Below, in pieces: positions 3,702 through 63,395 of a DNA stretch of 64,000 nucleotides. A program made the translations under genes and the position numbers. How positions within the stretch are numbered: the stretch's first letter is position 1; every line of letters starts with the position of its first letter. The DNA lies in the NCBI GenBank assembly GCA_035288925.1, contig DATDYS010000013.1, forward strand, positions 22,168 to 86,167, read 5' to 3'. The notes beneath the pieces are model-generated. The model was not told where the DNA came from. It was given only the letters and a program-made list of their open reading frames with translations, and ran no database searches. This DNA is from Candidatus Nanoarchaeia archaeon. Lineage in GTDB: Archaea; Nanobdellota; Nanobdellia; Woesearchaeales; GW2011-AR4.

Positions 3702-6179
3702 CTATCTTTGCGCATTCTCCCTGAATCTTCTTATCGCTATCTCGGCCAAAAACAGCAGCATCGCGATTATTGCAAACGGCCACCTGTAATCAGTTGAGTC
3801 AATTTTTATTCTTTTCGATTTTGCCTTGATGAATTCTATGATTCCTTTTGTATCACCGGGCTCAAAAACCTTGCCGCCGGTTTTCTGCACGAGAGTTGTG
3901 AATTCCGGATTAATTCCGAGGTTTGCGTATTCGTCATTGTAATTGGTGGCGAAAGTCGCGCCGAGCAGGTCCTTGAATCCAATTTCAGCCGGAGTGTATG
4001 GGGATGAATAAAGGTTCGTGTCTATTTTTGCGAACGCAAGGCCATATCCTTTCGGCATGTCTTTGGTTATCACATTCACGCTTGTAGATTTTCCCAGAAC
4101 GGTGTCGGCTATGCTCACATCATAGCTTTTTTTTCTTGCAAGATCGCCTATGGCCCAGTTTATGCTCTTGGTTATGAGTTTGGAATTTTCCTTGTTTAAT
4201 AATGCCCCCGCCCATCTTGAGCCGTCGTCAGTTCCAAATGTTACAACTCTTCCAAGCCCGAAGCGCCACACAGCCAGGATTGGAATATTCTTCTGCGTTG
4301 TCACAAGCAGCCTTGCCGCAGGCTTTGGCACCATATAATTATAGCCAGAAATGGTCGCATGCATGTCATCCATGGCAAGAGTTATAAAATGGGAAGTGTC
4401 AATTGGAATCAGCGTGTTGTAAAACTCCTCCCCTTTTGTCTCGTCTTTGTCGCCAAACTGGACTTTGAGTTTATTGGACGCGTCCGTCTTGAAGTAAATT
4501 CCCTCCCCGAGCCGTGCTATGTTGTCAAGGAAAAGGTTGTTGTCAGAAGACAGAACATCAGTGTCGGTTCCCACTCCGACGGTAAATATTTTTACGCCCT
4601 GGGCATTCACGCTCCGCACAATGTTAAGCGTGTTTTCCCTCAGCTGCTTGTATGTTGTCTTGCCGTCGCTGATGAAAATTATGTTTTTGCTTCCGCCGAC
4701 CTTGCCTAGCAGCTGCGCTCCGCCCTGTATGCCGACATCAAAGCAGGACTGGCCGTCAAAATCAAGTTTGGAGATTCTGTCCTTGAGCTCTTTTTTTACC
4801 TCCTTTAAGGGCTTCAAGCCGCCGGGAAGTATATCAAAAGCCTGGCATCTTTCTGTATGCCCATTGCCAAATGCAACAGCTCCGATGTTATTTTTCTCGC
4901 TCAGGCTGTCCACAACGCTTATTGCAAGAGCTTTTTCCAGCCCAATCGATTCGGACGTGCTGCTTGAAATGTCAATGACCAGCGCGATGTTTATGTCGCT
5001 TTTATTCGACTCCTCGCTTGCGCCGATTTTTACCGGAAGAAGCGTCTCAAGCAAAGTCCCTTTATACCCTCCCCTGTCGTAAGAATGCTCTCCGCCCAAA
5101 AATATCAGCCCGTTTCCGTCTGATACGTAGCTGCTGAGCCCGTCAATGCGGGAGTTTATGCTGGAGGCCGGAATGTCATTAAAAATTACAGCCATATAGT
5201 CCGACAAATCCTGCGGAAGCGAATCCCTGACGTCAACTTCATAAATCTTAAACAGCTGCTCGGCCAGCGGAGATGTTTTTTGCGTCATGTAAAGAATTTT
5301 CGGCCTTGGAACGATTTTCACGCTCTTGTAATAGGCATTGTTGTTCTGGAAATAGTCATCCTTGCCGACATTAAGCAGCCTTGCAGTCAGCTTGTGGTAC
5401 TCCCCCTCAGGAAATATTTTTGAAAATGCAAATGTTTTGGAGCCACTTCCCTGCTCTTCCAGTATAAGCACCGAATCATCCATGCTGACCTGCAGGGTGT
5501 AGGGGATGCTGCTGCCGATGACAGAAACCTTCACGACAAAATCGCCTTCGGTGTCCTTTATAAGCTCGGGGGGGCCGTCAATCGTAACCCCGACATCATT
5601 TTTCACGGCATCCATTTTCAGGGTGCTGATTGAGGAATTTATTCCGGAGGCAAAAAGCATGATGTCTCCAAGCACCTTGCCCTCGTTGTTCACCCCGTCC
5701 GTAACAACCAAAACATTGTCATCGCCCTCTATGTTGTTAAGTATCCCGTTTCCTATTGTTGAATGCTCTCCGCCCGCAATTGTCCTAATCTGCACCGGCA
5801 CCGTGCCTTCCAGTTTTTTGTACAAATTGTAGGCTATGTTTGGATTGTAAAGAGCCATAGACGTGGAATTGTCAACGAGAATCGTCAGCCTTGGATTGCC
5901 GGGAACGGTTTTGCTTTCCAGCATGAAAGGAGATGCAATCGCAATCATCAAAAATACAAATGCAAAGCTCCTCAGCGCAAGCACTATCTTCCTGTCCGTC
6001 TTCTTTGACTTCACATAATTTTCCAGTTCAAATTTGTTGTTGAATTTCACAAAAGTCTTTCTCGTAAGCCAAAATAAAAACAGCAGGATTGGGATTATTG
6101 CAATTAGCACATAGAAGTACCTGACGCAGTATTTGGACGTGCAGTATATGTTTGAGTAATCTGGGATAATAAAGCTCAT
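3702..6179 (-). CDS. membrane-anchored protein with two von Willebrand factor A domains (BatB-like)
   Basis: 825 aa. N-terminal TM. Two MIDAS-type motifs, LTILVDNSTSM and IALVIDISSST. Confidence 0.7.
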   Translation of the reverse strand: MSFIIPDYSNIYCTSKYCVRYFYVLIAIIPILLFLFWLTRKTFVKFNNKFELENYVKSKKTDRKIVLALRSFAFVFLMIAIASPFMLESKTVPGNPRLTILVDNSTSMALYNPNIAYNLYKKLEGTVPVQIRTIAGGEHSTIGNGILNNIEGDDNVLVVTDGVNNEGKVLGDIMLFASGINSSISTLKMDAVKNDVGVTIDGPPELIKDTEGDFVVKVSVIGSSIPYTLQVSMDDSVLILEEQGSGSKTFAFSKIFPEGEYHKLTARLLNVGKDDYFQNNNAYYKSVKIVPRPKILYMTQKTSPLAEQLFKIYEVDVRDSLPQDLSDYMAVIFNDIPASSINSRIDGLSSYVSDGNGLIFLGGEHSYDRGGYKGTLLETLLPVKIGASEESNKSDINIALVIDISSSTSESIGLEKALAISVVDSLSEKNNIGAVAFGNGHTERCQAFDILPGGLKPLKEVKKELKDRISKLDFDGQSCFDVGIQGGAQLLGKVGGSKNIIFISDGKTTYKQLRENTLNIVRSVNAQGVKIFTVGVGTDTDVLSSDNNLFLDNIARLGEGIYFKTDASNKLKVQFGDKDETKGEEFYNTLIPIDTSHFITLAMDDMHATISGYNYMVPKPAARLLVTTQKNIPILAVWRFGLGRVVTFGTDDGSRWAGALLNKENSKLITKSINWAIGDLARKKSYDVSIADTVLGKSTSVNVITKDMPKGYGLAFAKIDTNLYSSPYTPAEIGFKDLLGATFATNYNDEYANLGINPEFTTLVQKTGGKVFEPGDTKGIIEFIKAKSKRIKIDSTDYRWPFAIIAMLLFLAEIAIRRFRENAQR

Positions 6180-18801: not shown

Positions 18802-19365
18802 ATGCAACCCGATGATTTTATACACTTTAATGAAGCGCCTACGCGAACTGCCTACATCCAGTACAAGGGGATTTTTGACATGCAGGATTTGTATGAATCT
18901 GTGGCGGACTTCTTCAGCCAGAAAAAATTCAAGTTTTATGAAAAACAGCAGCGGTATAGGAAGCCGGGGCCTTTTGGCCCGGAAATATTATACCAATTTG
19001 AGGCCAACAGGACAATTGAAGATTATTATAAATGGTATGTATACATAACAATGGAAACTTTTGACGTGCACGATGTGGAGGTTGTGTCAAAAGACGGCAC
19101 AAAGAAAAAGATGACCAAAGGCAGGATTTGGGTGCAGCTTTACGGGAAAGTTGAGATGGACCCGGAGCATGTCTGGGATAAATCGGCATTTCTCGCGCAT
19201 TTAAAAGGATTTTACAACAAGTATGTACTAAGAAAAAGGATTGAAGGGGTGTGGTGGGATGAGCTCCAGTACAAAATTGTCTTGCGGCTTCATGCTCTTA
19301 TAAAAGAAAGGCTGAAAATGTCTTCTGAAGTCAATGAGACAAGGCACCACAGCGGCGTGCATTAA
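18802..19365 (+). CDS. hypothetical protein, paralog 1 of a tandem triplet
   Basis: 187 aa. Shares its layout with the next two ORFs (Y.G.F, W..E.GF/Y, V.KDGK/NGKK, IDAF/IDGFIDAH, FLRTI/FMRTIVD). Confidence 0.55.
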   Translation: MQPDDFIHFNEAPTRTAYIQYKGIFDMQDLYESVADFFSQKKFKFYEKQQRYRKPGPFGPEILYQFEANRTIEDYYKWYVYITMETFDVHDVEVVSKDGTKKKMTKGRIWVQLYGKVEMDPEHVWDKSAFLAHLKGFYNKYVLRKRIEGVWWDELQYKIVLRLHALIKERLKMSSEVNETRHHSGVH

Positions 19366-19377
19366 AAAAAGAGAAAA

Positions 19378-19905
19378 ATGGGACATCTAAAGATAATTGT
19401 AGACCATGTAAAGCTGGAATACAAGGGGCCTCTTGTTCTTAGCGATATGTTCAGGATGATTGAGACTTTCATCTGGGAAAAGGGCTATGACAAGCAGCAT
19501 GAGAAAGATTTTGAGCTTAACAACCCGGCAGGAAAATCATTCGAGTGGCAGGTTTCCCCATGGAAAAAGATATCAGACTATTCGCAGTACATACTTAAAA
19601 TCAGAATTCTTGGTTACGATTTCGTGAAAAGCGATATAATGGTCAACGGGAAGAAAACCAAAATCGACACCGGCAGGGTCAGCGTGGTGATTGACGCATT
19701 TCTTCAGCATGATTATGACAACTACTGGGACGAGCATCCGGTCCTTTATTTTTTGAGGACTATCTACGACCACTTTATTTTCAAGGTTTATACGGAAAAC
19801 CTCGAGCACAGGCTTGTGCACGACATGAACATGCTTGCCGATGACATTGCAAAATTTTTCAACATGTGCAGGCATTACACTGTGATTTCAAAATCAAAGC
19901 CATAA
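19378..19905 (+). CDS. hypothetical protein, paralog 2 of a tandem triplet
   Basis: 175 aa, same family as 18802 and 19910. Confidence 0.6.
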   Translation: MGHLKIIVDHVKLEYKGPLVLSDMFRMIETFIWEKGYDKQHEKDFELNNPAGKSFEWQVSPWKKISDYSQYILKIRILGYDFVKSDIMVNGKKTKIDTGRVSVVIDAFLQHDYDNYWDEHPVLYFLRTIYDHFIFKVYTENLEHRLVHDMNMLADDIAKFFNMCRHYTVISKSKP

Positions 19906-19909
19906 AAAA

Positions 19910-20422
19910 ATGTCAGAAAAAAAACAGGTAATTTACGATTTGAGGTACAGCTACAGCGGGCCTTTCCTGGTCGAGGATTTTTATGGCTATGTTGATGGCT
20001 GGATAAAAGAGCACGGGTTTGAGAAGGAGCCGAAAAAATCCCTTGAGTACGTGACGAAAGACGGCAAGCAAATCCAGTGGATTATTGAAGTCCACAGCCA
20101 CCTGGATGATCTGCACCACGGAATCGTGTTCCTGAAAGTCCTGATGAGCAATGTGAAGGAAACCGTGATAAAAATGAACAATAAAAAAATCAGGATAAAC
20201 AGCGGCGACGTCTTTGTCAACATTGACGGGTTCATTGACGCGCACGTGCACTCCACTTTCTGGCAGGTCAAGCCGGTTTATACTTTCATGAGAACTATAG
20301 TGGACAGGTTTGCGTACCATTTCCACTCTGACAAATACGACGGGGTTGTAGCAGAGCAGTCCCACAAGCTGTTCAAGGACATCCGTGCATTCTTCAACAC
20401 GCAGAAATTCAAGTACGAGTAA
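19910..20422 (+). CDS. hypothetical protein, paralog 3 of a tandem triplet
   Basis: 170 aa, same family. Confidence 0.6.
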   Translation: MSEKKQVIYDLRYSYSGPFLVEDFYGYVDGWIKEHGFEKEPKKSLEYVTKDGKQIQWIIEVHSHLDDLHHGIVFLKVLMSNVKETVIKMNNKKIRINSGDVFVNIDGFIDAHVHSTFWQVKPVYTFMRTIVDRFAYHFHSDKYDGVVAEQSHKLFKDIRAFFNTQKFKYE

Positions 20423-20490
20423 AAGATTATAATTTAAGTATAGGTAGAAATAAATTTCCTAAGCAATTTTTCTTTGATAATTTTATAATT

Positions 20491-20610
20491 AATCAGGGAG
20501 GGAATGTTCTTGCCGCACTAAATGTTATTTAGTTGCCCTCCACCCACCCGATAAAATATTTGTTAATAGTGCCCGATAAAACTCAATATGCGCAAGGGGG
20601 TGGGGAACGG
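20491..20610 (+). repeat. dispersed repeat family, copy A (AATCAGGGAGGGAAT ... GCCCTCCACCCACCC ... GGGGGTGGGG)
   Basis: 15-mer AATCAGGGAGGGAAT at 20491-20505 and 15-mer GCCCTCCACCCACCC at 20535-20549, identical to copy B at 55311-55360. GGGAGG/CCTCCC can pair. Confidence 0.65.
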
Positions 20611-20743
20611 ATGTTAAACAGAAAAAGTAGGAATCTGGTATTTCCCCTGAAGAATTTTAAAGTTTTGATTGAAAAGTAAATTATAAATTTTTTCACAACA
20701 TTTAAATAAGGTTTTCCAATTCAAAATAGATGACTAGGCAAAT

Positions 20744-20890
20744 GCGGGGGTTATTCTTAAGCGCACGCTTTTGAATCCTTAGAGCAAAGCCTGGTCAAAT
20801 GCGCAGGACTTAAGGAGGCACCCATCTGTAAATGGGATTATGATATCCTGTCTCTTAGTGAGTACGAGGGTTCGAATCCCTTCCCCCGCA
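20744..20890 (+). tRNA. tRNA-Leu (anticodon TAA) with two predicted introns: ~31 nt near position 8/9 (non-canonical) and ~30 nt at 37/38
   Basis: Acceptor GCGGGGG pairs with CCCCCGC, then A. D-arm GCA-AAGCCTGGTCAAA-TGC. Anticodon stem CAGGA/TCCTG with loop CTTAAG|A. Long variable arm TCTCTTAGTGAGTAC. T-arm GAGGG-TTCGAAT-CCCTT. Matches the recalled archaeal tRNA-Leu(UAA) layout. Confidence 0.55.
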
Positions 20891-20941
20891 TTTTTTCTTT
20901 TCACAAACTTTTAAAAATGAGACTAATTATCAAATTACAGC

Positions 20942-21026
20942 GCCTCTGTAGCATAGTAGCCATTGCGTTGCCTTGGTATTTCAAACAAACAGGCAAAGGT
21001 CGTGGGTGCAATTCCCATCAGAGGCT
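20942..21026 (+). tRNA. candidate tRNA (anticodon GGT, Thr-like) with a 12-nt anticodon-loop intron; atypical T-loop
   Basis: Acceptor GCCTCTG/CAGAGGC. Anticodon stem TTGCC/GGCAA. T-stem GTGGG/CCCAT. The T-loop reads TGCAATT (G at 55), which is unusual. Confidence 0.35.
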
Positions 21027-22077: not shown

Positions 22078-22201
22078 GGGCCTGTGGTCTAGCGGTATGA
22101 CGTCACCTCGACAAACGGCAAAGTCCGTTTACACCTTGTGGGACATAAAGTCCCGAGTATCGAAACGGTGAAGGCCACCAGTTCGAATCTGGTCAGGCCC
22201 A
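22078..22201 (+). tRNA. tRNA (anticodon GAC, Val-like) with a ~51-nt intron; position 33 is C, not U
   Basis: Acceptor GGGCCTG/CAGGCCC, then A. D-arm GTCT-AGCGGTA-TGAC. Anticodon stem TCACC/GGTGA. T-arm ACCAG-TTCGAAT-CTGGT. The intron contains two hairpins (ACGG..CCGT, GGGAC..GTCCC). Confidence 0.5.
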
Positions 22202-31792: not shown

Positions 31793-31857
31793 AAGCTTGA
31801 CGAGTTTCTTTTGGTCAAGCTTTTCTTTGTTAAAGAAAAGGTTGTTGGTGAACAATA
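31793..31857 (+). promoter_or_regulatory. conserved leader element: AAGCTTGAC-N12-GTCAAGCTT palindrome plus TTTCTTTGTTAAAGAAAAGGTTGTTGG, upstream of trpB
   Basis: Perfect 9-bp inverted repeat. The downstream 35-nt block recurs almost unchanged at 35494-35524 (aroB leader) and inverted at 43075-43114. Confidence 0.6.
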
Positions 31858-33033
31858 ATGAAAACTTTAGGAAAATTTGGAGACTTCGGAGGAATATTTG
31901 TTCCGGAAACTTTGATTCCGGCGCTTGAAGAATTGGAAGAAGCGTTTTTTAGGTTGAAGGATGATAAAAAGTTTAATTCCGAGCTAAAAGATTTGCTTGA
32001 GAAATACGCGGGAAGGCCGACTGCTTTAACTTTCTGCCCAAATTTAAGCAGGAAGCTTGGCTTTAAGCTTTATCTTAAGCGGGAAGATTTGCTGCACACA
32101 GGCGCCCATAAGATAAACAATGCTTTGGGGCAGGCTTTGCTTGCAAAATACATCGGAAAGAAAAGATTGATTGCAGAAACGGGTGCAGGGCAGCATGGAG
32201 TTGCAACTGCAACAGCCGGAGCCCGCCTTAATTTCAAGACAGATGTTTACATGGGCTCAAAAGACATTGAAAGGCAGAAATTAAATGTCCTTAGGATGAA
32301 ACTGCTTGGCGCAAATGTTGTTCCCGTTGAATCAGGCTCTAAAACTCTTAAGGATGCCATTAATGAGGCACTTCGTGACTGGACTGCCAATGTTGAAGAT
32401 ACTCATTATCTTCTTGGAAGTGTACTGGGGCCGCATCCGTTTCCAACCATGATTAAATATTTCCAGAGCGTAGTTGGAATTGAAGCGCGGAAGCAGATAC
32501 TTGAAGCTGAGGGCAGATTGCCTACCCATATAATTGCCTGTGTCGGAGGCGGCTCAAATGCTATCGGAATCTTTAATTCATTCATTGATGATAAAAGCGT
32601 GGGATTGATTGGCGTGGAAGCCGGTGGGGAAGGGATTAAGGGCGGAAATCACGCTGCCCGTTTTGCAGATTCTTCGCTTGGAAGAGTCGGAGTCATACAC
32701 GGCACGAAAACATTTGTCTTGCAGGATAAATACGGCCAGATACACAATACTTCTTCAATAGCCGCAGGCCTTGATTATTGCGCTGTTGGACCTGAGCATA
32801 GCTTATTGAGAGATATTAAAAGAGTTTTATACACTTATGCAACTGATTTGGAGACACTTGATGCTTTTAAGGTATTATCTAAAGAAGAAGGGATTATTCC
32901 TGCGCTTGAAAGCGCGCATGCTGTTGCTCATATTTTGAAAATTGGCAAGAGCTTGAAGAAGGACGATGTTGTAATAGTAAACCTATCGGGAAGGGGAGAT
33001 AAGGATTTGGATCAGATTCAGGAATATCTTTGA
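31858..33033 (+). CDS. trpB: tryptophan synthase beta chain
   Basis: 391 aa. [12 protein letters not shown]-lysine motif. Confidence 0.95.
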
Positions 33034-35439: not shown

Positions 35440-35524
35440 AAGCTTGACGAGTTCCTCTTCAAGAGGGCTTTGAACTTTGTTCAAAACTTTTTTGTCAAGC
35501 TTTTTCTTGTGGAGAAAAAGGTTG
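35440..35524 (+). promoter_or_regulatory. conserved leader element, aroB copy (AAGCTTGACGAGTT ... GTCAAGCTTTTTCTTGTGGAGAAAAAGGTTGATGG)
   Basis: Same 5' AAGCTTGACGAGTT and 3' GTCAAGCTTTT-CTTTGT-AGAAAAGGTTG-TGG blocks as the trpB leader. Confidence 0.6.
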
Positions 35525-36652
35525 ATGGACACCATAAATGCGAAGATAAAATCAAAGGAATACGATTACCAGATTTTCGTAGGCAGCTCTATCCTAAACG
35601 AACTGGCAGATTTTATTAAAAAAAATCACAGCGGAAAGAAAGTTGCAGTCATAATGGGAGAGCACACCAGCAGGCTGCACAAGCCAAAGCTCGGCAAAAT
35701 ATTAAGCGACCTAAACCCATTGTTCATAACAGTCCCTTCAGGAGAATCTTCCAAATCCAGGGAAATGAAGGAAGAAATAGAGGACAATTTATTAGACCAT
35801 AAGTTCGGAAGGGATTCTTTAATCATAGCAATTGGCGGCGGAGTAATCGGAGATTTAGCCGGATTCGTGGCATCGACTTTCAACAGGGGGATTCCGGTAA
35901 TTCATGTGCCGACTACTTTATTGGCAATGGCAGACTCATCCATCGGCGGGAAAACGGCGATAAACACAAAGCACGGAAAGAATTTAATCGGAACTTTCCA
36001 CCAGCCCGATGCGGTATTTGTTGACATGGATTTTCTGGAAACGCTGCCGGATGACGAATTCAAAAGCGGATTGGGAGAAATCATAAAGCAGGGAATAATA
36101 CAAGACAAAGAACTGTTCAATTTTCTGGAAAAACACTGCAAGGAAATTCTTGAAAGAAAAAAAGACGTCCTGCAGCATATAATAAAGCGCTCAATTGAAT
36201 TAAAAAAGCAGGTTTTTGAATTGGACTCTCATGAAATGGGTTTGAGGCAGATTCTGAATTTCGGGCACACTTTCGGGCATGCTTTGGAAGCATATTACAA
36301 TTACAAGATAAAGCACGGATTTGCAGTAGCCATAGGAATGGTTGTAGAAGCAAGAATTTCAGCAATGACAAATAGTCTAAAGGAAAATGAGGAAGAAAGA
36401 ATCAGAAACATGATTAAAATATTCGGGTTTCCCATGTCTGATTCCGCCGGCACTTCAAAAATAATGGAACTTATGGTATCGGACAAGAAATCAAAAGGAA
36501 ACCGGCCAAGGTTTGTCTTGATTGACAGAATAGGAAAAGCAAAAGAAAAAGACGGCAGTTTCTCGTTTGAAGTTGACAGCAAGGTCGTAGAAGAAGCGAT
36601 AGAAAAAAGCAAAGATGAGTATGATTCAAAAACCAATCAGTTAATAAAATGA
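35525..36652 (+). CDS. aroB: 3-dehydroquinate synthase
   Basis: The ORF track starts at 35477. The likely start is MDTINAK at 35525, which falls inside the conserved leader block. Motifs GGGVIGDLAGF and the metal-binding His region. Confidence 0.85.
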   Translation: MDTINAKIKSKEYDYQIFVGSSILNELADFIKKNHSGKKVAVIMGEHTSRLHKPKLGKILSDLNPLFITVPSGESSKSREMKEEIEDNLLDHKFGRDSLIIAIGGGVIGDLAGFVASTFNRGIPVIHVPTTLLAMADSSIGGKTAINTKHGKNLIGTFHQPDAVFVDMDFLETLPDDEFKSGLGEIIKQGIIQDKELFNFLEKHCKEILERKKDVLQHIIKRSIELKKQVFELDSHEMGLRQILNFGHTFGHALEAYYNYKIKHGFAVAIGMVVEARISAMTNSLKENEEERIRNMIKIFGFPMSDSAGTSKIMELMVSDKKSKGNRPRFVLIDRIGKAKEKDGSFSFEVDSKVVEEAIEKSKDEYDSKTNQLIK

Positions 36653-51221: not shown

Positions 51222-51327
51222 TAAATAAGTATTTAAATAAGTACTAAAATAAGTAAATTCTGTTTTCAGTAAGAATTTCAAACCACAAGACTTATAAATA
51301 AGTATTTTATTAAGTAATAAAATAAGT
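51222..51327 (+). promoter_or_regulatory. array of five exact AAATAAGTA 9-mers (51222, 51235, 51247, 51296, 51319) upstream of a small AbrB-like gene
   Basis: Read directly. Confidence 0.6.
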
Positions 51328-51330
51328 AGA

Positions 51331-51876: not shown

Positions 51877-54498
51877 ATGCACAACAAGCCCATAGAGCAG
51901 GTATTGAGGGAACTAAACACTTCAAATAATGGGCTGTCCCAGCAGGAAGCCGAGGAAAGGTTAAAGCAATACGGCTTCAATGAATTAAAGGAAGGAAAAA
52001 AGATTTCTCCGCTGGAAATTTTCATAAGCCAGTTCAAAAGCATCGTTGTGTGGATTTTAATTGTTGCAACGGTTATTTCAGCATTTCTAGGCGAGTACGT
52101 TGATTCGATTGTCATTTTCTCCATTATAATACTGATTGCCCTGCTGGGATTTTTCGAGGAGTACAGAGCCGAAAAAGCCATAGAGGCGCTGAAAAAGCTG
52201 GCGTCTTTAAGGGCAACTGTCATCAGGGACAGCCAGAAAAAGGAAATTGATGCAAAAAGCCTTGTGCCCGGCGATGTGATAATCCTGCAGACAGGCGACA
52301 AGGTGCCTGCCGATGCGCGCCTGATTGAGGTTTTCAACCTGCAGACACAGGAAGCCGCGCTTACCGGCGAATCCCAAGCCGTGAAGAAAAATATATCCCA
52401 GCTGGAAGAAAAAACAAGCATAGCCGACAGGCACAACATAGTTTTCTCCAGCACAATCGTCGTAAGCGGAAGGGCTAAGGCAGTAGTGATAGCAACGGGC
52501 ATGCAGAGCGAGATAGGAAAAATTGCCAAGATGATAGAGGAAGTAAAGCCCGAGCCGACGCCACTTCAAAAAGATATGGACCAATTGGGAAAATTTATCG
52601 GCACGATAACCCTCATTATAGCGGCGCTCATTTTTGCGGCTGGCATGCTGATTCGCCATTCCAACTGGGTTGACATGCTCCTTGTGTCAGTGTCGCTGGC
52701 AGTGGCAGCTATTCCGGAAGCGCTGCCGGCAGTCGTCACCATCTCCCTCGCCCTCGGCACCCAAAAAATGCTGAAGAGGAATGCGCTCATAAGAAGGCTG
52801 CCAAGCGTGGAAACTCTTGGCTCGACCACTGTAATATGCACCGACAAAACAGGCACGCTCACGGCCAACCAGGTGACTGTGAGAAAATTATACACTAATG
52901 GCAAGATAATAGATGCAACCGGCGTAGGCTACGGGACAAAGGGAATCTTTCTTTACAAAAACAAGCCGGTTCCGCCCGAAGAAATCGAACTTCTGCTGAG
53001 AATCGGAATACTGAACAATAATTCCGAGATAAAAGAGGGCAAGGTCATAGGCGATCCAACGGAAGCGGCATTGATTGTGAGCGCGGCCAGGCTTGGGCTG
53101 ATAAAAGAAGATTTTGATATTGAGTACAGAAGGATTGATGAAATTGAATTCACAAGCGAAAGAAAAATGATGACCACCATACACGGGCATCACGGCGAAA
53201 ATATTTCTTATGTCAAAGGCGCTCCGGAAGTTGTCCTGAAACTCTGCAATTTCATCTACATGAACGGGGAAATCAAAAAGCTGACAGCCGACATGAGGGA
53301 AGATATAATTGAGGCAAACAGGCAGTTTGCCGAAGGGGCGTTAAGAGTGCTGGGATTCGCCTATAAAACAATTGTTGACTCAAGCCCGGAAAAAAACCTG
53401 ATTTTTGTCGGCCTGCAGGGAATGATTGACCCGCCCAGGGAAGAAGTCAAAATTGCAATCGAGAAATGCAAGAAAGCGGGCATCAGGGTAATCATGATTA
53501 CTGGAGACCATGAGATAACAGCAAGGGCAATTGCAAAGGAGATTGGGCTGACTGGAAAAACAATAACCGGCGAGAAGCTTGACGAAATAAATAATTTGGA
53601 TTCTTTGGTTGAAGATATATCCATTTTTGCCAGGGTAAATCCGGAGCACAAGATTAAGATTGTCGATGCCCTGAAGAAAAAGGGCCACATTGTTGCGATG
53701 ACAGGGGATGGCATAAATGACGCGCCTGCATTAAAAAAGGCCGACATCGGCGTTGCGATGGGAATTTCAGGCACGGATGTAAGCAAAGAAGCAAGCGCAA
53801 TGATTCTTACTGATGATAATTTTGCATCAATTGTAAATGCAGTGGAGGAAGGAAGGGGGATTCATGACAATATAAAAAAATATTTTGCGTTCCTAATATC
53901 CGGCAATATAGGGGAAGTGCTGATAATATTCATTTCAATAATAATGGGCATTCCGCTCCCTCTGACCGTGACGCAGATTTTGCTCATAAATCTAGCAATG
54001 GACGGGCCTCCTGCCATATCACTTTCAGCGGAGCCTTCTGAGCCGGATGTGATGAGCAGGAAGCCAAGAAATCAAAAAGAGCCTATATACAGCAGAATTG
54101 GGAATTATGTATTTTTATTTCCTGCTGTGATGGTGGTGGCTGTGTTGCTGGTTTTCATTTATTTTTACCGCGCAGACGGCCTTGTAAAGGCGCAGACCAT
54201 GGCGTTCCTGACAATCATAATGTTCAGGCTCTTTGAAGTTTTCGCCTGCAGGTCGCTGACAAAAAATGTTTTCAAGATGGGATTGTTCAAAAACAGGTGG
54301 CTTGTGGCTGCAGTTGCGTCGTCATTTGCCATAGTTGTACTGACATTGTACGTTCCGCTCATGAACAAAATATTTGACACTATGCCCATAAGCATCCTTG
54401 AATTTCTTTTTATAATCCTGCTATCAAGCCTAGGGGCCATTGCAATTGAAATTTCAAAATTCCTTGGCAATAGGGGAAAAGCTGCTGTTAACATTTAA
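51877..54498 (+). CDS. P-type cation-transporting ATPase (type II, Ca2+/PMCA-SERCA-like)
   Basis: 873 aa. TGES, CTDKTGTLT, MITGD, GDGINDAPAL. Confidence 0.9.
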   Translation: MHNKPIEQVLRELNTSNNGLSQQEAEERLKQYGFNELKEGKKISPLEIFISQFKSIVVWILIVATVISAFLGEYVDSIVIFSIIILIALLGFFEEYRAEKAIEALKKLASLRATVIRDSQKKEIDAKSLVPGDVIILQTGDKVPADARLIEVFNLQTQEAALTGESQAVKKNISQLEEKTSIADRHNIVFSSTIVVSGRAKAVVIATGMQSEIGKIAKMIEEVKPEPTPLQKDMDQLGKFIGTITLIIAALIFAAGMLIRHSNWVDMLLVSVSLAVAAIPEALPAVVTISLALGTQKMLKRNALIRRLPSVETLGSTTVICTDKTGTLTANQVTVRKLYTNGKIIDATGVGYGTKGIFLYKNKPVPPEEIELLLRIGILNNNSEIKEGKVIGDPTEAALIVSAARLGLIKEDFDIEYRRIDEIEFTSERKMMTTIHGHHGENISYVKGAPEVVLKLCNFIYMNGEIKKLTADMREDIIEANRQFAEGALRVLGFAYKTIVDSSPEKNLIFVGLQGMIDPPREEVKIAIEKCKKAGIRVIMITGDHEITARAIAKEIGLTGKTITGEKLDEINNLDSLVEDISIFARVNPEHKIKIVDALKKKGHIVAMTGDGINDAPALKKADIGVAMGISGTDVSKEASAMILTDDNFASIVNAVEEGRGIHDNIKKYFAFLISGNIGEVLIIFISIIMGIPLPLTVTQILLINLAMDGPPAISLSAEPSEPDVMSRKPRNQKEPIYSRIGNYVFLFPAVMVVAVLLVFIYFYRADGLVKAQTMAFLTIIMFRLFEVFACRSLTKNVFKMGLFKNRWLVAAVASSFAIVVLTLYVPLMNKIFDTMPISILEFLFIILLSSLGAIAIEISKFLGNRGKAAVNI

Positions 54499-54523: not shown

Positions 54524-56527
54524 ATGGGCAGTTTCATGCAAGTTTGCACGGAGATAGTTAAGGAGCTTAAGAAAAGCGATGTGAAAACGCAGCGACAGCT
54601 GAATAAAATTAAGCTTAAAATTCTGAATAAATATAAGTCCAAAGGGAATATAATTCAAATACCGAAAAACGCTGACATATACTTTGCCGCTTCTGAAAAA
54701 GACAGGAAAAAGTTCATGGAGCTTCTTTCACTAAAACCCGTTCGGACAATAAGCGGAGTCGCTCCGATTGCATTGATGTCAGAGCCTTATCCGTGCCCGC
54801 ATACTTTAAAGGGAATAGGCCCTTGCACTTACTGCCCTGGCGGCCCGGGCTCGCCGTTCGGGAATGTTCCGCAAAGCTACACCGGCAAGGAGCCTTCAAC
54901 AAGAAGGTCAATAAGAAGCAATTACGACCCTTACATGATAGTTTTCAACAGGCTCGAGCACTATGTCGCGATGGGCAAAGTTCCGGACAAGGCCGAAATA
55001 ATTGTTCAGGGCGGCACTTTCACCTTTTTTCCAAAGCTGTACCAGGAATACTTTGTAAAGTACGCGCTGAAAGCAATGAATGACTTCTCAAGGCTATTTT
55101 TCGATGACGGCGGAAACATAGACATGCTGAAATTCAAGATTTTCTTTGAGCTGCCGAGAATAATTTCCGAAGACGAAAAAAGAACAAAGTCAATACAAAA
55201 AAAATTATTGCAGATTAAGCATCTGGATTTAAGCGATTCAAAAGTATTTGATAAAATTAAGCATGATTTTTTTAATGATAAACTTACAAAATTTGAAAAT
55301 AATCAGGGAGGGAATTTAATGAACGCACCAGCTGCAGATTTCAAAGCCCTCCACCCACCCCTCGCTGTTGAACTTAATAGTGCCAGCAGTTCATTGAAAC
55401 TAACAAATATAAATAACGCAAATGTCAGGGCAATAAAAAATGTGCAGAACAAAATCAAAACTGAAAATTTAACTCCGTTGTCATTAAAGCAGATTCAGAA
55501 AGAGAACGAAACTGCCTTAATCAGGTGCGTTGGCCTTACAATAGAGACAAAAAGCGATTTTGGTAAATTATACCACGGAAACATTATGCTGGAATTGGGC
55601 TGCACAAGAGTGGAATTGGGAATTCAGTCAGTTTATGATAAGGTTCTCAAAGAAACTCACAGGGGAAACACAGTAGCGGACAATATTGAATCAATCAGGA
55701 TTCTGAAAGATTTGGGATTTAAAATAAACTACCACTACATGCCGGGCCTGCCGCTGACAACCAAGAAAATGGATTTGAAAGGGCTGAAAGAATTGTTCAA
55801 AAATCCAGATTATATGCCCGATATGCTGAAAATCTACCCATGCATGGTTATGGAAGGAACAAAATTATACGATGACTGGAAAGCAGGAAAATTCAGGCCA
55901 TTAACTACAAAAGAAGCTGCTGAGATGATTGCCGAAACAAAAAGAAATGTGCCAAAATGGTGCAGAATAATGAGGGTTCAAAGGGATATTCCCACAAATG
56001 CGACCGCAGGCGGCGTTGACAAAACGAACCTGAGGCAGTATGTTGAGAAAATCTGCAAAGAAAAAAATATCCACTGCAAGTGCATAAGGTGCAGGGAGGT
56101 AGGATTTTATTCAAAAAATAAGGATAACCTAAAAATAAATTTTGATAAAATAAAAATAACAACAACAGAGTATAAAGCGTCGCACGGAAAAGAATTTTTT
56201 ATTGAAGCGGAAGATAAAAAAAATGACATACTGATTGGATTTGTCAGGTTAAGATTTCCTTCCCAGTTCCTAAGGGAAGAAATAACAAAAAAATCCGCTT
56301 TGATAAGGGAGATTCACGTCTTCTCGTCCGCAGTCCAGATAGGCAAAAAATCAGAAGACAGCTTCCAGCACCGCGGTTTGGGAAAAAAATTGTTAAAGAA
56401 AGCGGAAGATATCGCAAAGCAGAGCGGAAAAAACAAAATGGTTATAATCTCAGGCATCGGAGCAAGGGAATACTTCAGAAAACTGAGTTATGAGATGGAA
56501 GGGCCTTATATGGTCAAAAAGATTTAA
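54524..56527 (+). CDS. elp3: Elp3-family radical SAM / GNAT tRNA wobble-uridine modification enzyme, with ~90-aa insertion
   Basis: 667 aa. PCPHTLKGIGPCTYCPGG cluster, RCVGLTIETKSDF. C-terminal GNAT motif HRGLGKKLL. Confidence 0.8.
   Translation: MGSFMQVCTEIVKELKKSDVKTQRQLNKIKLKILNKYKSKGNIIQIPKNADIYFAASEKDRKKFMELLSLKPVRTISGVAPIALMSEPYPCPHTLKGIGPCTYCPGGPGSPFGNVPQSYTGKEPSTRRSIRSNYDPYMIVFNRLEHYVAMGKVPDKAEIIVQGGTFTFFPKLYQEYFVKYALKAMNDFSRLFFDDGGNIDMLKFKIFFELPRIISEDEKRTKSIQKKLLQIKHLDLSDSKVFDKIKHDFFNDKLTKFENNQGGNLMNAPAADFKALHPPLAVELNSASSSLKLTNINNANVRAIKNVQNKIKTENLTPLSLKQIQKENETALIRCVGLTIETKSDFGKLYHGNIMLELGCTRVELGIQSVYDKVLKETHRGNTVADNIESIRILKDLGFKINYHYMPGLPLTTKKMDLKGLKELFKNPDYMPDMLKIYPCMVMEGTKLYDDWKAGKFRPLTTKEAAEMIAETKRNVPKWCRIMRVQRDIPTNATAGGVDKTNLRQYVEKICKEKNIHCKCIRCREVGFYSKNKDNLKINFDKIKITTTEYKASHGKEFFIEAEDKKNDILIGFVRLRFPSQFLREEITKKSALIREIHVFSSAVQIGKKSEDSFQHRGLGKKLLKKAEDIAKQSGKNKMVIISGIGAREYFRKLSYEMEGPYMVKKI
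55311..55384 (+). repeat. dispersed repeat family, copy B, in-frame inside the Elp3 coding sequence
   Basis: AATCAGGGAGGGAAT (55311-55325), GCCCTCCACCCACCC (55346-55360) and TTAATAGTGCC, all shared with copy A. Confidence 0.65.
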
Positions 56528-63234: not shown

Positions 63235-63299
63235 TTGATTTTTATTTTGATTATTTTTTTCTTAACTTTTAATTGCTGCAGGATTTCTAGATAAATTAA

Positions 63300-63390
63300 T
63301 CTTAAGGGAGGGAACTTTACATTTGCACTCAATGTGGTTTATCCGCCCTCCAGCCACCCGTAACTATTTTATATCGGGCGCGCTTCCCGG
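63300..63390 (+). repeat. dispersed repeat family, copy C (AAGGGAGGGAA ... GCCCTCCAGCCACCCG)
   Basis: Diverged copy. Same spacing (~30 nt) between the GGGAGGGAA and CCCTCC blocks, and GCACTCAATG matches GCACTAAATG in copy A. Confidence 0.55.
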
Positions 63391-63395
63391 AATGT

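Follow-up and report, generated by a model that had tools for sequence, protein, structure and literature searches.

Why should a DNA element that otherwise lies between genes also sit, in frame, within the gene for a tRNA-modifying enzyme? The question is raised by a 64,000-nt stretch of a Candidatus Nanoarchaeia archaeon genome (contig DATDYS010000013.1, positions 22,168 to 86,167 of the forward strand; hereafter the window), which has a G+C content of ~40% and carries three copies of a short element that we name by its two blocks, GGGAGGGAA...CCCTCCACCCACCC. One of them, copy B, lies inside the gene for Elp3, the radical-SAM/GNAT enzyme of tRNA U34 cm5U modification. We found that these copies belong to a family of folded repeats confined to one lineage, the Woesearchaeota (DPANN archaea), which apparently has been undescribed so far, and that the exact bases of the Elp3 copy are preserved, beyond the amino acids that they encode. 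The descriptive part of this account, namely the family, its anatomy, covariation, polarity, synonymous constraint, and common insertion site, can be given with high confidence. That the ~105-nt repeats are maintained by their hosts, with their single-strand fold as the substrate of a conserved factor, is a proposal to which we give about even chances.

The window has three exact matches to the pattern GGGAGGGAA-N(20-45)-CCCTCCA[C/G]CCACCC, each on the + strand (20496-20549, 55306-55360, and 63306-63359), whereas 100 dinucleotide-preserving shuffles of it have none. A covariance model run with filters off scored copies A, B, and C at 91, 78, and 68 bits, respectively, with the next match at 12.7 bits, and returned no further strong copy in the window. 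The first-pass annotation of this DNA, made from the sequence alone, had reported three same-strand copies whose blocks are separated by a ~30-nt spacer with GCAC; both statements hold, the spacer measuring 30-31 nt. Its three loci were also correct, but their extents were not, as copy A is a dimer of ~20483-20662, copy B runs from ~55293 to 55383, and copy C from ~63293 to 63381. Copies A and B have in common an upstream AATCA and TTAATAGTGCC ~19 nt downstream. A candidate fourth copy at 4498-4512 on the - strand was rejected as a chance GGGGAGGGAAT within a gene.

Beyond the window, a scan of one genome per prokaryotic species with the exact pattern returned 61 loci, 60 of them on contigs of archaeal metagenome-assembled genomes (MAGs), mostly titled Woesearchaeota, Nanoarchaeota, or Nanoarchaeia; the only non-archaeal locus, on a GC-rich Dehalococcoidia contig, is a chance match. 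At least 119 further loci were found in metagenomes, and there were no pattern matches in viral contigs. The element is thus the dispersed repeat that it had been taken for, and the genome-wide count proposed at that stage gives 12 exact copies in SMAG_U8179, 16 in H43-bin135_1, and 12 in ERP119705_co14_301, as lower bounds. Several of the related contigs come from the Hainich groundwater wells. At the gathering threshold, Rfam 15 matched only two tRNAs in the whole window, and copy A with its dimer partner gave at E ≤ 10 a single chance-level match on the wrong strand. A protein-database search with a profile of the encoded peptide gave no match, and a full-text literature search for the element sequence and for Woesearchaeota RNA motifs gave nothing relevant. 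Some of the repeat-bearing MAGs are titled 'uncultured archaeon', and several (L001, L003, L005, L008, and others) 'uncultured Methanosarcinales archaeon'; their syntenic genes are the same as those of Woesearchaeota MAGs, which suggests that the 'Methanosarcinales' titles are mislabelled.

The anatomy of the repeat was derived from 63 aligned copies and from 145 non-redundant copies aligned to a hidden Markov model (HMM). The unit, ~105 nt in length, consists of a lead, GGGAGGGAA, a variable region V1 (~9 nt), TTGCACT, V2 (~17-20 nt), G-CCCTCC, a linker A, the tail CCCACCC, V3 (~17-19 nt), and AGTGCAA, in this order. The lead comprises 13 nt (about -13 to -1), with a consensus that is A-rich and then reads T-[C/A]-W-T-[C/A]-A. 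In the first helix, P1, the purine strand GGGAGGG pairs with CCCUCC; in the second, P2, GCAC in the large loop pairs with GTGC at the 3' end. As P2 crosses P1 (GGAGGG/CCCTCC), the resulting fold is a pseudoknot. In the window these parts are placed as follows.

55293 to 55383, + strand: copy B, a type-A unit in frame in Elp3 (pattern; covariance model, 78 bits), with lead 55293-55305, purine strand GGGAGGGAA 55306-55314, P2 5' strand GCAC 55325-55328, G plus Watson-Crick strand CCCTCC 55346-55352, linker A 55353, tail CCCACCC 55354-55360, and, on the + strand, P2 3' strand GTGC 55380-55383
~20483 to 20662: copy A as a whole, a two-unit dimer
20483 to 20572, + strand: type-A unit of copy A (pattern; covariance model, 91 bits), with lead 20483-20495, GGGAGGGAA 20496-20504, GCAC 20515-20518, GCCCTCC 20535-20541, linker A 20542, CCCACCC 20543-20549, and GTGC 20569-20572
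20569 to 20662, - strand: type-B unit of copy A, the inverted diverged partner (covariance-model minus-strand match 20554-20662), read on the + strand as AAGGGGG-T-GGGGAAC 20594-20608, TTTCCCC 20641-20647, and the reverse-complemented lead TGAAGAATTTTAAAG 20648-20662
63293 to 63381, + strand: copy C, a slightly degenerate type-A unit between gap and truD (pattern; covariance model, 68 bits), with GGGAGGGAA 63306-63314, GCAC 63325-63328, GCCCTCC 63345-63351, tail GCCACCC 63353-63359, and P2 3' strand GCGC 63378-63381, which leaves one A-C mismatch in P2

Support for P2 comes from covariation. Its third pair, which is A-T in 109 units, T-A in nine, and G-C in eight, is the top mutual-information pair of the alignment, and the P2 structure performs better than both shuffle and slide controls. 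Compensated variants also occur in genomes that are otherwise of the GCAC type, i.e., GCGC/GCGC in L049 and L056, GAAC/GTTC in L024, and ACGC/GCGT in L023. In one unit (L004 4440-4600, - strand) and its orthologue (L064 14239-14296), P2 is extended to 11 bp and V1 holds a 45-nt hairpin (GCATGC...GCATGC); an insertion sequence targeting the unit was considered for the string common to these two and rejected, as the string is the expanded V1 hairpin. A degenerate unit (L037 6469-6573) is related to these two, with AATTGTGAGC and CAGGTAC in common. Orthologous copies have kept their blocks and diverged in V1 and V2, and for this lack of conservation V1 and V2 were rejected as guide sequences. P1, on the other hand, is invariant within type A, in part through the search pattern, so that its support comes from compensatory changes between the following subtypes.

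Type A, 135 non-redundant units: GGGAGGG / CCCUCC / tail CCCACCC
Type B1, 15 non-redundant units: GGGGGAA / UUCCCC / tail CCCCCUU
Type B2, not counted separately: GGGGAAC / GUUCCC / tail CACCUU (purine strand GGGGAA against tail CACCTT)
Type C, one non-redundant unit (L074): GGGAGAA / UUCUCC / tail CCCUCUU

Both strands of P1 change in a compensatory manner in B1, B2, and C, in agreement with the earlier suggestion that the two blocks can pair. In every subtype, the first G of the purine strand stays outside P1, the linker is an A, and the tail mirrors the purine strand in parallel. This mirror has 0-1 mismatches in the four subtypes, against 4-7 of 7 in nearly all other purine-rich hairpins that the same scan found in the same DNA. 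With the purine strand, a complement in parallel orientation cannot make a Watson-Crick duplex, but it is what Hoogsteen C+.G-C and T/U.A-T/U triples call for, and the classical strand order of a foldback triplex is purine strand, loop, Watson-Crick pyrimidine strand, turn, and Hoogsteen pyrimidine strand. By sequence, the tail fits such a parallel third strand, with C opposite G and U/T opposite A at 0-1 mismatch. From this covariation of the tail with the purine strand across subtypes, we infer that the mirror tail marks a pyrimidine-purine-pyrimidine triple helix.

Type-B units have their own lead, a P1 of GGGGGAA/TTCCCC or GGGGAAC/GTTCCC, and a P2 of GCTC/GAGC. A convergent type-A partner accompanies 30 of the 35 non-redundant B- or C-type units, and the resulting A/B dimers are ~180 nt long, the two units overlapping by GTGCYC (GTGCCC in copy A); units also occur alone. 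Since the lead and purine strand return inverted at the far end, dimers have terminal inverted repeats, which solo units are without. The second half of copy A, a 'module 2' (...CAAGGGGGTGGGGAAC...TATTTCCCCTGAAGAATTTT), had been a candidate 3' extension, expression platform, or group II intron 5' end; these were rejected because module 2 is the inverted diverged unit on the opposite strand.

With the unit defined, its presence in a coding gene can be considered. The features concerned are the following.

54524 to 56527, + strand: Elp3 gene, 667 aa, tRNA U34 cm5U radical-SAM/GNAT enzyme (open reading frame (ORF), homologues, and solved Elp3 structures)
55085 to 55480, + strand: lineage-specific 132-aa insertion in Elp3, residues 188-319 (structure alignment)

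The reading frame of Elp3 runs intact through copy B, as had been noted at first, and the copy encodes ...QGGNLMNAPAADFKALHPPLAVELNSAS... within it. The insertion, which takes the place of a 4-residue linker in Methanocaldococcus infernus Elp3 (6IA8; query residue 187 corresponds to 165 and 320 to 170), had been described as a low-complexity segment of ~90 aa; its presence stands, but it measures 132 aa, of which only the centre is hypervariable. This centre (~55235-55414), located between KHLDLS and NANVRAIK, varies in length and sequence among homologues and is always open; copy B does lie within a lineage-specific, hypervariable insertion. The 120 closest Elp3 homologues are similarly long (553-702 aa). 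The ~130-aa insertion in the radical-SAM domain is present in these closest proteins and missing from the solved archaeal Elp3 structures; its flanks, FSRLFFD...IKHLDLS and NANVRAIKNVQNKIK, show good conservation and are possibly a module specific to the lineage. For Elp3, an AlphaFold model built on a shallow alignment has a mean predicted local distance difference test (pLDDT) score of 53.6; the insert is coil at pLDDT 24-33, and as parts of the core are equally low, the model is unusable for placing the insert.

At the same site of Elp3, unit A is found in seven genes, those of the window, L018, L055, L064, L065, L066, and L083. The Elp3 genes of L062 and L063 (86% identical) retain the 3' end of unit A and an intact unit B that is read in another frame (...SRGWGTDK...IPP), the Elp3 gene of L067 has a complete A+B dimer, and other homologues have only decayed, alignable remnants. 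The simplest history is one ancient in-frame insertion of a dimer followed by differential loss; re-insertion at a hot spot is a possible alternative.

The seven genes also reveal selection at the level of bases. In their full DNA alignment, we considered columns with an invariant, degenerate amino acid. Outside the element, the codon is invariant as well in 57 of 324 such columns (17.6%; by amino acid, Gly 4/24, Ala 1/12, Leu 3/36, and Pro 2/26), whereas within the element (GGA GGG ... GCC CTC ... CCA CCC) it is invariant in six of six, for which the multiplied per-amino-acid rates give a chance of ~1e-6. The element codons (GGA GGG ... GCC CTC CAC CCA CCC) are GC-rich within an AT-rich gene, and P2 is intact in five of the seven copies. 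Set against the 17.6% elsewhere, the six invariant codons point to selection on the bases and not on the peptide alone.

These data also bear on whether a GGN...ALHPP peptide motif of Elp3 happens to resemble intergenic DNA, a protein-level coincidence. The G-G-N...A-L-H-P-P arrangement does recur in several Elp3 orthologues. However, the peptide is found in only five of the 120 homologues (and once more with ALRPP), its synonymous sites are frozen, the same bases occur with lead, P2, and tail in more than 130 intergenic copies, and relatives have at this site an inverted B unit that is read in another frame. The first-pass annotation had itself named the finding that would speak for coincidence, relatives with the insertion in Elp3 and no other copies in their genomes; the insert-bearing relatives hold many other copies. 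We regard this explanation as excluded. Instead, we favour the view that Elp3 merely tolerates the element, whose translation is a by-product in a disordered loop.

Only one other gene was found to host the repeat in frame. In L128, a low-complexity 461-aa open frame (1-1383), which ends in the intein C-terminal splicing block PF14890 and lies on a contig cut at the 5' end, contains a complete A+B dimer, again in the same reading frame. No other in-frame host gene was found among 136 non-redundant units, the remainder being intergenic or in spurious ORF extensions. In the aligned set, 59 of 63 copies are intergenic, and their flanking genes are housekeeping genes, including those of S6e, eIF2-gamma, GAPDH, LytB, and fibrillarin. 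Small ORFs within the unit itself were considered and rejected, as spacing varies by 1-3 nt and most copies contain stop codons.

A multi-copy and mostly intergenic repeat, with dimers that have inverted termini and with in-frame copies in two ORFs (the second being that of L128), could be a selfish non-autonomous mobile element, e.g., a miniature inverted-repeat transposable element (MITE) or a derivative of IS200/IS605-type insertion sequences, that landed in Elp3 by accident and has no function for the host. A 'small mobile element' had in fact been proposed at first. This origin appears quite unlikely to us, because copies occupy orthologous sites across species whose Elp3 proteins are 73-88% identical. 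Such sites include S6e/eIF2-gamma (L015, L029, L030, and L038), gap/truD (copy C, L049, and L063), the copy A site (with L052), and Elp3, and in the syntenic regions compared there was no difference in presence or absence. Moreover, 24 bases are unchanged where the adjoining spacer and synonymous sites are saturated, which indicates purifying selection and not decay, and conservation is as high in solo units, which as halves would be immobile, as in dimers. By inspection, target-site duplications are not evident in the AT-rich flanks; viral copies are absent; and no transposase, TnpA and TnpB included, is among the 25 Pfam families that 109 flanking ORFs match most often, ahead of 110 further families.

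The units have a strong strand polarity. Of 26 pairs of neighbouring copies on the same contig, 24 have both copies on one strand (with some redundancy among the contigs), and both switches are from + to -. Flanking genes, in contrast, are of mixed orientation, and the strand of the unit carries only 56% of the coding bases nearby. The orientation of the unit therefore follows something long-range and not the local genes. When GC skew at third codon positions (GC3) was divided into a coding-strand part and a remainder, the remainder was positive on the strand of the unit (mean 0.03, 67 of 105 loci, Wilcoxon p = 0.0013), and in the window the cumulative GC skew rises over the region with the three + strand copies. 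As the G-rich strand is conventionally the lagging-strand template, the positive remainder places the unit on the presumed lagging-strand template. Such a strand bias would also fit single-strand transposition, which as an origin of the family would explain both polarity and inverted dimers.

It is possible, though not probable, that the units act as RNA, either as expressed or processed small structured RNAs or as a cis-acting mRNA element, with the Elp3 copy as an embedded RNA signal. The pseudoknot, the variable-length V1 hairpin, and the compensatory changes are typical of functional RNAs, P2 is kept in most of the Elp3 copies, and the dimers with checked flanks are all followed by a same-strand gene or tRNA. 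RNA genes with high expression often point in the direction of replication, and the 24:2 polarity could have this cause. However, the TATA/BRE promoter ~25 nt upstream and the oligo-T terminator expected of an independent archaeal small-RNA gene were not seen: no TATA-like signal stands at a fixed distance upstream of the units, there is no positional signal upstream of -13, and T-runs are not enriched downstream (T4+ after 25 of 98 units, A4+ after 57 of 98). About 44% of the flanking coding sequence is on the opposite strand, including tight (-,-) contexts such as S6e/eIF2-gamma, and the genes downstream of dimers are functionally unrelated (RibB, a pilin-like protein, Fic, nicotinamide mononucleotide adenylyltransferase, an ATP-grasp protein, and a tRNA). 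No Rfam family matched. An RNA function would need processing from read-through transcripts in either gene context, and a processed precursor is compatible with the signals seen.

Several specific nucleic-acid functions were considered and set aside. The first-pass annotation had the element mask a Shine-Dalgarno-like GGAGG by its complement. This did not hold up, as B1 and B2 have GGGGGAA or GGGGAAC instead of GGAGG, the mixed gene orientation (56% co-oriented) does not suit it, and the listed copies have, by inspection and not by counting, no constant distance to a start codon. Ribozymes of the hepatitis delta virus-like, pistol, hatchet, and twister classes, C/D or H/ACA guide RNAs, attC sites, and origin recognition boxes were likewise rejected, for want of Rfam support and because their defining boxes are absent. 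Finally, an asymmetry of G:U wobbles that was seen in the first 63 copies had been taken as evidence for RNA of the + strand; it disappeared in the 145 units and was withdrawn.

Given a contig-uniform and gene-independent orientation, no promoter at a fixed distance, and no T-run terminator, we prefer a mechanism in which the repeat would act as single-stranded DNA. GGGAGGG would pair with CCCUCC on a single strand to form P1; after the linker A, the tail CCCACCC would fold back parallel to the purine strand as a third strand; and P2 would tie the large loop to the 3' end, giving the pseudoknot. The fold would most likely arise as single-stranded DNA on the G-rich strand when this is exposed in lagging-strand synthesis, and would be recognised by a conserved trans-acting factor; it would thus act at the nucleic-acid level and not be read as a protein signal. 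In Elp3, an ancient dimer would have entered the centre of the loop in frame, where the protein tolerates ~30-60 extra residues, and the bases of this copy may be under constraint because the element continues to act there as a nucleic acid. Our confidence in a DNA-level mechanism is modest, and both the trans-acting factor and DNA, rather than RNA, as the acting molecule are what we infer.

Some of our results weigh against this mechanism or the evidence for it. The exact pattern itself accounts for part of the block invariance seen across loci, and HMM or covariance-model matches outside the pattern are few. In the larger set of 145 non-redundant units, G:U (30) and A:C (33) are about equally frequent. 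Minimum-free-energy folds of single copies are no better than those of shuffles, and the same applies to the dimer, both as RNA and as DNA, although pseudoknots and triplexes are outside the models of these programs; RNAalifold returned only the invariant P1 from the alignment. As for the triplex, consecutive C+.G-C triples are disfavoured at neutral pH, the turn formed by the linker is just 1 nt, and position 4 of the type-A tail is A, not U, opposite an A-U pair. However, with an A at this position the tail could not compete for Watson-Crick pairing with the palindromic GGGAGGG. The effect seen in GC skew is a small one (~0.03) and its loci are not fully independent, and our analysis identified no candidate for the trans-acting factor.

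A more far-reaching proposal, which we consider doubtful, is that the repeats represent either a new class of folded nucleic-acid element, triple-helix-capped pseudoknots that are read as single-stranded DNA in replication and signal the polarity of DPANN chromosomes, or a new class of abundant structured RNA. Both versions have the units conserved wherever the family is found. Under the polarity version, the units would be an archaeal counterpart of the polar elements Ter, Chi, and KOPS (FtsK orienting polar sequences).

Dispersed structured intergenic repeats that occasionally occur in frame in genes are a kind already known. The Rickettsia palindromic elements (RPEs) are ~100-150-bp palindromic repeats found between genes and, where the protein fold tolerates them, in frame within genes (PMC10969869). 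Like them, the present family is a multi-copy palindromic repeat, with A/B dimers and 12-16 copies per MAG, and the dimers in L067 Elp3 and in L128 are RPE-like. In contrast to RPEs, which occur in many unrelated genes, the 136 units here enter only Elp3 and one intein-containing ORF; their hosts are DPANN archaea, and they have a mirror tail, a pseudoknot, and a strong polarity, the two families being likened by description and not by sequence. Of the terminal inverted repeats of MITEs, the dimers have a counterpart and the solo units have none; a consistent target-site duplication was not found by inspection, and orthologous copies are retained in all relatives compared.

The repetitive extragenic palindromic sequences and bacterial interspersed mosaic elements (REP/BIME) and the enterobacterial repetitive intergenic consensus (ERIC) are similar in being short structured intergenic repeats that are single or in inverted pairs, conserved well beyond neutral expectation, and, here as far as the 25 most frequent flanking Pfam families show, without an adjoining transposase. 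However, the present unit exceeds them in length, has the same blocks in all sampled source genomes instead of species-specific ones, combines a pseudoknot with a parallel mirror tail where they have a simple palindrome, and keeps one orientation along a contig. We thus favour a repeat that is maintained by its host and resembles REP/BIME but is novel in structure.

IS200/IS605 elements function as folded single-stranded DNA and have a strand bias tied to the lagging-strand template. The polarity of the family (24 of 26 pairs) and its positive GC3 skew are compatible with such behaviour. On the other hand, the top 25 flanking Pfam families lack TnpA and TnpB, copies are stable at orthologous sites, and the unit has a hairpin, a tail, and a pseudoknot instead of two subterminal hairpins. 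The proposed fold itself resembles H-DNA-type foldback triplexes, the element for nuclear expression (ENE) of MALAT1, and SAM-II-type pseudoknots in its strand order and in the third-strand covariation for C+.G-C and U.A-U; the resemblance is in the possible fold only, as read from sequence. In the ENE, U-rich loops clamp an A-rich tract, and riboswitch triplexes bind ligands, whereas the present element is G/C-rich with a 1-nt turn and gives no indication of a ligand or a 3'-end role. What appears to be new is the combination of mirror tail and pseudoknot, block invariance in all sampled genomes, polarity, and synonymous constraint in a coding gene.

DPANN archaea have tiny genomes with little spare DNA. 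Despite this, a genome with the family has at least 12-16 copies of the 105-nt element, 24 bases of which do not change between species. If the fold is real, these units would provide a rare motif, a triple helix that is G/C-rich, forms within one molecule, occurs naturally, and is joined to a pseudoknot. The organisms do not grow in culture on their own, and their GC skew is very slight; if the polarity reflects replication, the repeat would offer a handle on their origins, termini, and replication-linked processes. If the polarity-marker or RNA-class proposal is true, the element would be important enough to stay frozen at the synonymous sites of an essential tRNA-modification gene. For protein evolution, it is a clean archaeal case of a nucleic-acid element in a coding sequence, with selection on the bases and a by-product in a loop. 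In annotation, it accounts for odd low-complexity inserts in Elp3, and its GC-rich blocks, where they stand in AT-rich spacers, might be taken for ribosome-binding sites.

The surroundings of the intergenic copies provide some further observations. Copy C has orthologues in L049 and in L063 (9988-10095), and in the latter TruD is annotated downstream. Its V3 region contains TTTTATAT at 63367-63374, ~20 nt before the truD ATG at 63392, and this string is kept in both orthologues; it is possibly the TATA box of truD, and copy C would then hold the promoter of its neighbour. Directly upstream of copy A is a tandem array of three paralogous ORFs (187, 175, and 170 aa; 18802-20422), the two tested of which have no Pfam match. 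The two tRNA genes recognised by Rfam (20870-21026 and 22078-22201) contain introns, the first apparently two; ARAGORN, unlike Rfam, found no tRNA over the whole window. The L052 orthologue of the tRNA at 20870-21026 is without the first intron. Two other repeats were seen in the window. A 52-nt repeat with TTGTYAARGAAAAGGTTGTTG, 75% identical and unrelated to the folded repeat studied here, has two or three occurrences (31809-31860, 35489-35540, and 4522-4542), and TAAATAAGTATTTAAATAAGTACTAAAATAAGTA occurs in two 34-nt copies, 91% identical and 73 nt apart (51222-51328), upstream of a P-type ATPase gene at 51877.

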